Of a DNA stretch of 38,296 nt, positions 12,001-15,000 are shown piece by piece; within the stretch, counting starts at the first letter, position 1, and every line of letters starts with the position of its first letter. The stretch is from assembly GCA_037442825.1 (NCBI GenBank), contig JBBIPN010000003.1, forward strand, positions 1 to 38,296, written 5' to 3'. The position numbers were made by a program. Source of the DNA: Sulfurihydrogenibium sp. (GTDB lineage Bacteria > Aquificota > Aquificia > Aquificales > Hydrogenothermaceae).

Positions 12001-15000
12001 CCAGATGTTTTATCAAAAATTTAAAAGGAAGACAGAATGGGTAAAAAGAAAGAAAGTAAAGAGAAGGAAAAAGGTATAGTTTTAGAAGGTACTGTTTTAG
12101 AAGCCTTACCTAATGCTATGTTTAAAGTACAGCTTGAAACAGGCCATGAAGTTTTGGCTCATGTTTCAGGTAAAATGAGAATGCACTTTATAAAGATACT
12201 ACCTGGTGATAAGGTAAAAGTAGAGCTATCGCCCTACGACTTAACACGTGGAAGAATTATTTTTAGAATTTAAAGGAGGTTTTCCAATGAAAGTAAGAGC
12301 ATCTGTTAAACCAAGATGTGAGAAATGCAGAATTATAAAGAGAAATGGAAAAGTTATGGTTATCTGTGAAAACCCTAAACACAAGCAAAAACAAGGTTAA
12401 GGAGGATTATAGCTTATGGCACGTATAGCAGGTGTAGATTTACCAGATAGAAAAAGGTTGGAAATAGCTTTAACCTACATATATGGAATTGGTAAATCAA
12501 GATCAAAAGAAATTTTAGAAAAAACTGGTATCGATGGAATGAAAAGAGTTGGAGAGCTAACGCCTGATGAATTAAATACAATTAGAAAATTTATAGAACA
12601 AAATTACAAAGTTGAAGGTGACCTTAGAAGAGAAGTTGCTGTAGCTATTAAAAAATTAGTTGATATGGGATGCTACAGAGGAATAAGACATAGACTTGGT
12701 TTACCTGTAAGAGGTCAAAGAACAAAAACGAATGCAAAAACTAGAAAAGGAAAAAGAAAGAAATAATAAGAGGTGTAAGTGATGGCAAAAAAAAGAAAAA
12801 TTACTAAAAAAATTAAAAGAACAGTTACATCAGGAATAGCTCATATCCAATCTACGTTTAACAATACAGTAATCACAATCACAGACAAAGAAGGTAATAC
12901 GTTATCATGGGCATCTGGTGGTACTGAAGGTTTTAAAGGTACAAGAAAAAATACTCCATACGCTGCACAGCTTGCTGCTCAAAAGGCTGCTAAAAGGGCT
13001 ATGGATGAGTATGGATTAAAAGAAGTTGAAGTTTGGATAAAAGGTCCAGGAGCAGGAAGAGAGCCTGCAGTAAGAACATTGGCTGCTGTTGGATTAACAA
13101 TTAAGGCAATTAGGGATGTAACACCGATACCTCATAATGGTTGCCGTCCAACAAGTAAAAGGAGGGTTTAATTTATGGGTAGATATATTGGTCCTTTAAC
13201 AAAAGTTAGCAGAAGATTGGGTGTTTTTGTAGGTGGAGATATTGAATCTTTCCAAAAGAGAAACTTCCCACCAGGACAACACGGAAGAATTCAAGGTAGA
13301 AAAAAACTATCTGACTATGGTGTACGTTTACAAGAAAAACAAAAGTTAAGGTATTTATACGGTGGAATAAGAGAGTCTCAATTTAAAAGATATTTTGAAA
13401 GAGCTTCAAAAGCAGCAGGAAACACTGGGGTAGTTTTACTTCAGCTGTTAGAAAGAAGACTTGATAATGTTGTTTATAGATTAGGTTTTGCTAAAACAAG
13501 ATTACAAGCAAGACAACTTGTAAAACATGGACATTTTCTCGTAAACGGTAAGAAAGTAGACATTCCATCTTACGAAATAGATAAAGATGATATTATAGAG
13601 TTAAGAGATAAAAGTAAAAAAATAAGCTTATTTAAAGAAAACTTAGAAAGTAGAGACCCTCGCTCTATTCCAAGATGGTTAGAATTAGATAAAGAAAACT
13701 TTAGAGGTAAAGTTGTAGAGATACCTGAAGAAGTAGAGTTAGAGATACCGGTAAACGTTCAGTACATAATCGAGTACTACTCTATGTAATAATTCCCCAA
13801 AAACCGCCTGCCGGGACAGGGGGAACTTTAAGGCGGTAAACAAATATCCCGGCACCGGACTTTTAAAACCGGTTATAAGGTGGAGAGAAGATGTCACTTT
13901 TAGATTTTGTAATGCCTACTAAAATTTACTGGGATGAGTCAACGAAGACAGATAGTTTCGGAAAATTGTATGTGGAACCTTTAGAAAGGGGTTTCGGTAT
14001 AACAATAGGAAATGCTCTAAGAAGGGTGCTTTTGTCATCTTTATCTGGTGGTGCTATTACAGCTGTTAAGATAATAGGTGTTCCCCATGAGTTTTCAGTA
14101 ATAAAAGGTGTATTGGAAGATGTTACAGAAATCGTATTAAACCTTAAACAGATAAGACTTATAATAGATGAAAATATAGAAAGAGATTTTGCTATACTTG
14201 AAGTTAAAGACCCTGGAAAAGTTTATGCTAAAGATATTAAATTTCCAGCAGGTATAGAAGTTGCCAATCCAGACGTCCATATCTTTACTATCACAGAACC
14301 TATTAAATTACAGATGGAATTTAGAATAGAGAGAGGTATTGGTTATAAAACTGTAGAAGAGTTGGAACCTATAGATGAGATAGGTTGGATACTTTTAGAT
14401 ACTTCATTTTCACCAATTAAAAAAGTTGCTTTTAGTGTAGAACCTACAAGAGTAGGAGATAAAACAGACTATGATAGATTGATAATGGAAATAGAAACAG
14501 ACCGTACAATAACTCCAGATGATGCTTTAATTAAAGCTTCTAACATTTTAATAGAACACTTTAATTTACTTCAAAAACCAACAGTTAAAAAAGTTCAAGT
14601 GGTTAAAAAATCTGTTCAACCAAAAACAGAAGAGATTAAAGTTGAAGAAGATAAACTCTCATTAGCTATAGATGAACTTGAAATATCATCAAGAGCTATA
14701 AACACTTTAAGAAAACTTGGCATCAATACGATAGGTGACCTTGTAAAACTATCTGAAGATGACTTAAGAGAAGCTAAAAGCATTGGAAGAAAATCATTGA
14801 AAGAGATAAAAGATGCTTTAGCAGATATAGGCTTAGAACTTGCTCCATCTAAAACAACAACTGAATAAAGGAGGCAGTAGATAATGCGTCATAGAGTTAA
14901 AACAAAAAGCTTTCATAGAAGAAAAGAGCAAAGAGAAGCTTTATTTATAAATTTAGCTAAAAGTTTAATAAACCACGGAAGAGTAGAAACAACATTGCCA

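Follow-up and report, generated by a model that had tools for sequence, protein, structure and literature searches.

A Shine-Dalgarno-targeting IS607/TnpB transposon leaves an RNA pseudoknot in the leaders of rpoA and many other genes of thermophiles

An IS607/TnpB element, as we show here, landed in the ribosome-binding site of rpoA in an ancestor of two genera. At this site the left end, tnpA, tnpB, the H0 hairpin and the CCAGG terminus were later lost, and purifying selection preserved a pseudoknot with its hairpin. Insertion followed by retention also took place, each time independently, at a great many other genes across several thermophilic phyla. Regarding function, we lean tentatively, at somewhat less than even confidence, toward the knot being a putative cis-acting and heat-stable 5′ cap or roadblock, which would keep the displaced gene expressed and which hosts would have co-opted many times; this reading is drawn from sequence comparison.

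The DNA analyzed is a 38,296-nucleotide stretch of Sulfurihydrogenibium sp. (contig JBBIPN010000003.1; hereafter, the window) that carries a ribosomal-protein operon in a genome of 29% G+C. The motif reported before rpoA in a preliminary description was confirmed. In particular, the 101-nt spacer between rpsD and rpoA holds an H-type pseudoknot, an extra helix (P1) and a hairpin (P4), arranged as follows.

13175..13789, + strand: rpsD (ribosomal protein S4), the upstream gene (TIGR01017, 272 bits); its stop codon lies 3 nt 5′ of the module
13793..13798, + strand: P1 5′ strand TTCCCC, an optional helix; a complementary partner of 5-15 nt in 259/259 long-loop copies, missing from minimal copies
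13804..13808, + strand: S1 5′ strand CCGCC of the pseudoknot; three Watson-Crick pair types in 293 copies
13809..13809, + strand: loop L1, a single nucleotide, which is U or A in 290/293 copies
13810..13816, + strand: S2 5′ strand GCCGGGA of the pseudoknot; two-sided changes in 7/7 pairs, 30 sequence types
13820..13825, + strand: P1 3′ strand GGGGAA, within loop L2; complementary to the P1 5′ strand
13832..13836, + strand: S1 3′ strand GGCGG; from aligned and parsed copies
13837..13846, + strand: loop L3, 10 nt, A-rich, with five invariant unpaired positions (invariant columns in 60/60 aligned copies; 10 nt long in 285/293)
13847..13853, + strand: S2 3′ strand TCCCGGC; pairing and covariation across copies
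13854..13873, + strand: P4 hairpin ACCGG/CCGGT, directly 3′ of S2; a shortened remnant of the right-end hairpin of the element
13877..13885, + strand: Shine-Dalgarno sequence (SD) of rpoA, in the place of the CCAGG terminus of the element, from sequence comparison
13891..14868, + strand: rpoA (RNA polymerase alpha), the gene led by the module (TIGR02027, 350.8 bits), with its ATG at 13891

The knot of the rpoA leader thus has stems of 5 bp (S1) and 7 bp (S2), a loop 1 of 1 nt and an A-rich loop 3 of 10 nt, and L3 probably packs on S1 as a minor-groove triplex. P4, which has a median stability of -11.6 kcal/mol across 173 solo copies, was previously described as containing the SD; instead, it stops 3 nt before it. 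No promoter was found within the rpoA spacer. The two S1 strands (window 13803-13809 and 13830-13837) are each one base off the anti-SD and the SD, such that S1 mimics an SD/anti-SD helix; this likeness is lost in the GCGCC variant. Elsewhere in the window, a cluster of porin, P-II, glutamine synthetase and ammonium transporter genes (19840-24223) lies behind a 690-nt gap, and an arsenic-resistance cluster (24279-27489) encodes ArsR, a thioredoxin-like protein, an ArsP permease, an ArsC-type phosphatase and ArsB. Three ORFs of the window have no Pfam match: 15574-16614 (346 aa), 27635-27910 (91 aa) and 36079-36324 (81 aa).

Both crossing stems covary across 293 distinct parsed copies, as expected of an H-type pseudoknot; 289 of these are fully paired, with 30 types of S2, and 285 combine a single L1 base with a 10-nt L3. 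In an alignment of 60 copies, which were selected by a pattern with S1 fixed, 98.1% of 720 stem cells are paired, compared with 30-55% in slid controls. S1 had been described as invariant, an appearance that arose because the search pattern fixed it: matches of the covariance model that the pattern misses reveal covariation in S1 too, with GCGCC/GGCGC in 24/293 copies and CTGCC/GGCAG in 2/293. The structure parser itself demands the L3 consensus, and the invariance of L3 is therefore taken from the 60-copy alignment. Moreover, in 16 copies loop 2 is at most 5 nt long; each of these consists simply of a compact H-type knot with P4 behind it, and the minimal form is a plain 40-nt H-type knot. 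As P1 is optional, the conserved unit is the knot plus the hairpin. The earlier negative Rfam search stands: no family matches at E ≤ 10 over window positions 13400-14200, and at 10 further loci Rfam 15, including RAGATH-18, gives only chance-level matches far below the gathering scores.

The host genome (G000) carries two copies, at C3:13803 and C14:23516, and the pattern, the covariance model and nhmmer all return the same two. The C14 copy lacks P1 and lies just 3′ of a strong promoter-like site. It does lead an ATP-citrate lyase gene, as first proposed, although this is the beta subunit gene aclB and not aclA (orthologue L027: PF16114 and PF24948), and there are seven distinct parsed orthologous copies rather than four. 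We reproduced the pattern count of 31 matches in 24 of 50 Hydrogenothermaceae genomes, with none for the reversed control. A fuller pattern is positive in 78 of 178 Aquificota genomes (control 0), and the covariance model finds matches in 44 of the 50 Hydrogenothermaceae genomes. In a wider species collection, the 120 or more loci of a previous loose scan were mostly chance matches in G+C-rich genomes; a tighter pattern returns real copies, with at least 80 records among the matches listed. All named taxa among these 80 belong to thermophile groups, while about a dozen records bear generic names that do not reveal a habitat. Outside Aquificota, 14 of 42 among the matches listed are solo copies (Bacillota, Thermodesulfovibrio, Thermodesulfobacteriota, Desulfobacterales). 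Of 19 viral matches, one is a real element. A viral contig (L169) carries an intact element with the knot, a possible vehicle between phyla.

Two further groups of copies were observed. A napA-like gene, recognized by eye from its twin-arginine leader, is led by a copy in five Hydrogenothermaceae genera, in full and minimal forms (L009-L014, L370, L375-L385, L395-L404), and this copy is probably older than that of rpoA. In addition, the ribosomal-protein operon of G041 (L015, L026, L284, L368) holds, within 10 kb, four copies that differ in age. One is a full-length tnpB element, two still have H0 and the terminus (one of these lies before rpsM), and the fourth is an old solo copy before rpoA.

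In complete elements, a gene for a TnpB of 460-560 aa (TIGR01765 and TIGR01766 over cut-off, NF040570 below it) has the module at its 3′ end. The RuvC triad D221, E284 and D354 is intact in 57/57 aligned TnpB proteins. The proposed origin of the leaders, as right ends of a TnpB element, is supported. The assignment to IS200/IS605 proved wrong, since the gene 5′ of tnpB, where present, encodes not an HUH (Y1) transposase but an IS607 serine recombinase with an N-terminal HTH (L223; NF033518, 223.7 bits against a cut-off of 110). In intact elements the right end runs H0, module, CCAGG. In a hand count, 52 of 58 elements whose left end is credible have GGAGG directly 5′ of it. This count left aside seven internal matches judged spurious, four elements belonging to a GGTGG-type clade and rows without a left end; the search had demanded only GG. 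Empty rpoA sites hold a single GGAGG, so that GG is present at both ends and at the target and is not duplicated, and IS607 elements are reported to exchange at GG without target duplication (PMC6188088). Furthermore, the same TGTGCA-type repeat occurs in the left end of the element and in P4. We class the parent as a new clade-level member of IS607/TnpB.

The loop of H0 (CYTGG) complements the terminal CCAGG, and in a sister clade a CCAGG loop accompanies a CCTGG terminus, which is a two-sided change. We read this pairing as the probable closing pseudoknot of the omega-RNA, whose predicted guide would be the spacer and first codons of the host gene. Because the element inserts at the GG of GGAGG, it splits the SD from the start codon. 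Its position in leaders follows from this choice of target, the host genes being unrelated: copies precede 193 distinct N-termini, and the special link to rpoA and ATP-citrate lyase once suggested for the module is replaced by the SD as the target. Neither is the SD supplied by the element, as had been thought; it is host-derived or re-evolved and was not delivered intact. IS900 also targets the SD. The residual SD would be hidden in the closed omega-RNA fold, a possible reason for the loss of H0 from solo copies. Three side observations concern related elements. In a knot-less clade (L436, L442, L447, L453), the target (GGTGG), the terminus (CCTGG) and the H0 loop have changed together. One genome, G119, holds 49 right ends of another knot-less TnpB clade (L465-L492). 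A mini-element of ~150 nt in G122 (L201) has the target motif, left end, module and right end, with no genes and no H0, and was possibly mobilized in trans.

The rpoA locus was inspected in 30 of the 47 genomes with an rpoA match. The site is filled in 13/13 genomes of two genera and, in line with the earlier distribution, the module is missing from the 17 others, all of which have GGAGG in a spacer of about 17-45 nt. A separate insertion at the same rpoA site is seen in G122, where GGAGG is still visible, followed by four bases, the module and a terminus that has decayed; the site is empty in 4/4 congeners of G122. Since this insertion is independent, the g1 and g6 rpoA copies could also represent two insertions. 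Among the 275 copies with enough flank, 87 retain both H0 and the terminus, 16 have just the terminus, 5 have just H0, and 167 have lost both. Intermediate relics are present between the intact element and the solo leader. The window copy has lost both H0 and CCAGG. Some G122 copies suggested aberrant excision between the target GG and the GG of P1 as a general route to solo copies. We rejected this route, as SD-like sequence 5′ of P1 is not enriched (15/167 versus 23/167 control windows).

The knot is missing from 11 full-length elements. In a quick tree of 57 TnpB proteins, from which eight duplicate or cut rows were dropped and in which L231 and L247 were labelled knot-bearing with their 3′ ends out of view, four changes in the presence of the knot are needed, at least three of them forced by strong branches, and knot-bearing proteins occur on both sides of the midpoint root. 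On this tree, the knot is ancestral and was lost at least three times. In one knot-less lineage, two small deletions took both halves of the knot and left P1 behind, and two of the three knot-less lineages are no longer at SD targets. As intact elements exist without it, the knot is not an obligatory part of the omega-RNA, and we infer that it is an accessory of the element. The setting of the right ends was also compared. A start codon with an open frame lies 3-14 nt downstream in 60 of 66 scorable knot-bearing right ends (14 more were too short), compared with 369/835 GGAGG sites in the host genome, 135/758 in Aquificaceae loci and 5/38 in knot-less relatives. This last comparison is confounded, because 34 of the 38 come from clades with another terminus and the elements are related; only four of the 38 share GGAGG, one of these being at a start, and the contrast is therefore suggestive rather than proof.

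Purifying selection on the knot after loss of the element is clear, which bears out the retention proposed earlier. Between the two genera with the rpoA copy, identity of the 32-nt core is 0.84, compared with 0.45 at four-fold sites of rpsD and rpoA (saturation 0.40). In the orthologous rpoA copies, 143/143 stem cells are paired and every stem pair is kept in 13/13. The lowest-scoring model matches inspected are compensated or shortened knots, none of them broken. We accordingly set aside the idea that solo copies are the intact tail of a decay series, the weakest matches still being knots, with the limit that copies decayed past detection are uncountable. The complete 1.5-Mb genome G122 holds 35 copies (L200-L216, L322-L366), many of them before translation or transcription genes, and its congener G124 has none. 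By eye, the genes led in G122 include rpsK, rpoA, tsf, infC, rpsR, rpsT, rpsU, rpmF and an hfq-like gene. Two neighboring copies in this genome (L355, L356) share the upstream start codon and seven bases before P1, which hints at copying between loci. TnpB and TnpA were searched for and not found in the complete G122 genome, nor in G000, an assembly of 137 contigs in which absence is no proof.

With a cap or roadblock, the knot would act in cis on the transcript of the gene displaced by the element. S1, S2 and P4 would stack, with L3 packed on S1, into a compact heat-stable 5′ structure that would stop 5′-end-dependent decay and would insulate the downstream initiation region from upstream RNA. 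The element would thereby survive in the ribosome-binding sites of essential genes, and hosts would retain the knot for the same benefit. At rpoA, the module would either stabilize the rpoA-rplQ stretch of the operon transcript or uncouple it from the rest. After a fresh insertion, the SD duplex has a median of -3.9 kcal/mol, from about -13 kcal/mol, the latter value being a computed counterfactual; in solo copies it is -6.8 kcal/mol versus -6.5 kcal/mol in the genome control (p 0.17). The SD is thus repaired in solo copies and yet the knot is kept; the knot outlasts the SD defect, and we rejected a role in pure SD compensation.

TATAAT occurs just 5′ of solo copies in 20/167 cases versus 3/167 control windows and, together with the aclB promoter, this enrichment indicates that some copies lie at transcript 5′ ends. 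Other copies, such as that of rpoA, are intercistronic, and a barrier to 5′ decay suits both positions. Candidate nucleases in the host are an RNase E/G match and a beta-CASP nuclease that resembles TTHA0252. TTHA0252 has 5′-3′ activity. Counting against a cap, RNase J over the family cut-off was found in 0/5 genomes tested. Structures at the 5′ end are reported to stabilize bacterial mRNA (PMC3997798). In known 5′ stabilizers a plain hairpin suffices, so the invariant unpaired bases of L3 may mark a contact with a protein or the ribosome. Most relatives express rpoA without the module, and any benefit was therefore not essential in origin.

Such a contact with the ribosome is the core of the main rival, which we regard as rather unlikely but as the closest competitor: the knot would recruit ribosomes or provide a standby site through binding of bS1 or the 30S subunit and would raise initiation at the start codon, first offsetting the SD halved by insertion. 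The weakened SD duplex of fresh insertions and the invariant unpaired L3 bases suit this role, as does a bS1-like gene in the host, whose match is below cut-off. Moreover, tisB mRNA is reported to need an H-type knot for S1/30S standby, and S1 to bind several pseudoknots (PMC7708055); on the other side, S1 is reported to fail to bind a stably folded compact knot (PMC7038950). The start codon lies a median of 15 nt beyond P4, although this distance is a legacy of the insertion geometry. Persistence of the knot after SD repair also speaks against recruitment, as do the solo copies in Bacillota. In Bacillota, bS1 is short.

Alternatively, the module could control the downstream gene as a switch or binding site that responds to temperature, an ion, a ligand or a host protein, with the opened S1 5′ strand pairing with the SD; we consider this improbable. 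The S1 5′ strand is indeed one base off the anti-SD of the 16S end of this genome, unpaired bases are invariant, and the pseudoknot in the T4 gene 32 leader is described as a protein nucleation site (PMC3014915). However, the downstream genes (193 N-termini) share no common pathway and were chosen by target site, the SD lies outside all stems, and the GCGCC/GGCGC variant (24/293) lacks the anti-SD likeness. The coherent gene context and the expression platform overlapping an SD or terminator that characterize a riboswitch were not found. Slightly less probable still is an entrenched relic with no positive function, whose G+C-rich strands must stay paired to avoid masking the SD. Single stem changes would free strands able to pair with the SD, and many G122 cores are near-identical and may be young or homogenized; nevertheless, deletion of the whole module is an easy exit, as seen in the spacers of relatives (about 17-45 nt) and in elements that deleted both knot halves, and entrenchment leaves the conserved unpaired L3 bases and the convergence on a minimal perfect knot unexplained.

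Two other readings have very little probability. Solo copies might still serve as omega-RNA scaffolds bound in trans by TnpB, as suggested previously, or by a TldR-like protein, given that the module sits inside the predicted omega-RNA, that TnpB of this family retains the RuvC D-E-D triad and that the family is present in 6/8 other genomes of the genus; but the 167/275 copies without H0 and CCAGG lack both strands of the closing pseudoknot, which makes TnpB binding unlikely, apparently intact elements do without the knot, and the searches of G000 (137 contigs, with the limit given above) and G122 returned no TnpB or TnpA. Equally hard to credit is a role in detaching the host message from the element transcript, as a small self-cleaving ribozyme or a processing signal. 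The sharp 5′ boundary at P1 and the invariant unpaired bases could point to such a role, but the motif has no Rfam match, its minimal form is a plain 40-nt H-type knot, cleavage would do little in copies at the transcription start and, to our knowledge, its topology fits no HDV-like, twister, pistol or hammerhead fold.

Among known systems, the parent most resembles the ISFba1-type IS607 TnpB with a RAGATH-18-derived reRNA (Ren et al. 2024, PMC11061315), which likewise has TnpA and TnpB, a right-end RNA and a scaffold closed by pseudoknots. Its target motif, AGGAG or GAGGG, was measured, whereas GGAGG is inferred here; all are purine-rich and SD-like. Its TnpB has about 390 aa, compared with about 460-560 aa (TIGR01765 and TIGR01766) for the TnpB described here, and the present element differs in thermophile hosts and in an RNA without a RAGATH-18 Rfam match. 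In the accessible text of that paper, the word "ribosome" is absent and no solo, host-retained ends are described. A search for solved-structure relatives of the present TnpB returned none at E ≤ 0.3. The IS607 family as described by Chen et al. 2018 (PMC6188088) shares GG at both ends and target, absence of duplication and short end repeats; there, H. pylori IS607 shows only a (G)GG preference, whereas the present clade inserts at GGAGG and carries an accessory RNA knot.

The knot itself has several parallels. Similar to the S1-dependent standby site of tisB (PMC7708055), it is an H-type pseudoknot 5′ of a ribosome-binding site, but the tisB knot has stems of 9 and 5 bp and loops of 0, 2 and 3, lies ~100 nt from a sequestered SD and is not transposon-derived. 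The T4/T2 gene 32 leader (PMC3014915) also contains a compact coaxial H-type knot, which, unlike the module, binds the product of its own gene. IStrons, in which IS605/IS607 is combined with a group I intron (PMC13521648), likewise use TnpB-transposon RNA to limit damage to host genes; in contrast, the module has no intron, measures about 50-100 nt, stays in the message and is proposed to protect expression rather than to splice. The literature searched gave no description of the motif or of host retention of solo ends. The motif is not described in the accessible parts of Lechner 2014 (PMC4227106), Brewer 2021 (PMC8632094) and Narunsky 2024 (PMC11109978), whose per-motif files could list it unnamed as a mobile-repeat candidate. 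The one-nucleotide L1 and A-rich L3 may also resemble retroviral frameshift knots. Frameshift knots are placed within coding RNA, 3′ of a slippery site, a setting not seen here.

Overall, we consider it nearly an even chance that the omega-RNA of an SD-targeting IS607/TnpB transposon contains a separate RNA device of 40-90 nt through which the displaced gene stays expressed, by capping or by ribosome recruitment, a form of damage limitation like that of the IStron intron, and that hosts in at least four thermophilic phyla domesticated it repeatedly as a general means of expressing core genes. If true, this would document how the scaffold of a TnpB guide RNA can become a cis-acting mRNA element of the host, with the intact element, the relic, the solo leader and the minimal knot as stages visible in genomes. 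It would also offer a possible answer to how elements with SD-like targets persist before essential genes. Furthermore, the motif is a structured RNA family new to Rfam. Its small size suits structural studies, and it is a candidate portable module for gene expression in hot conditions. Its parent represents an uncharacterized clade of TnpB nucleases from thermophiles, for which the predicted target motif is GGAGG.
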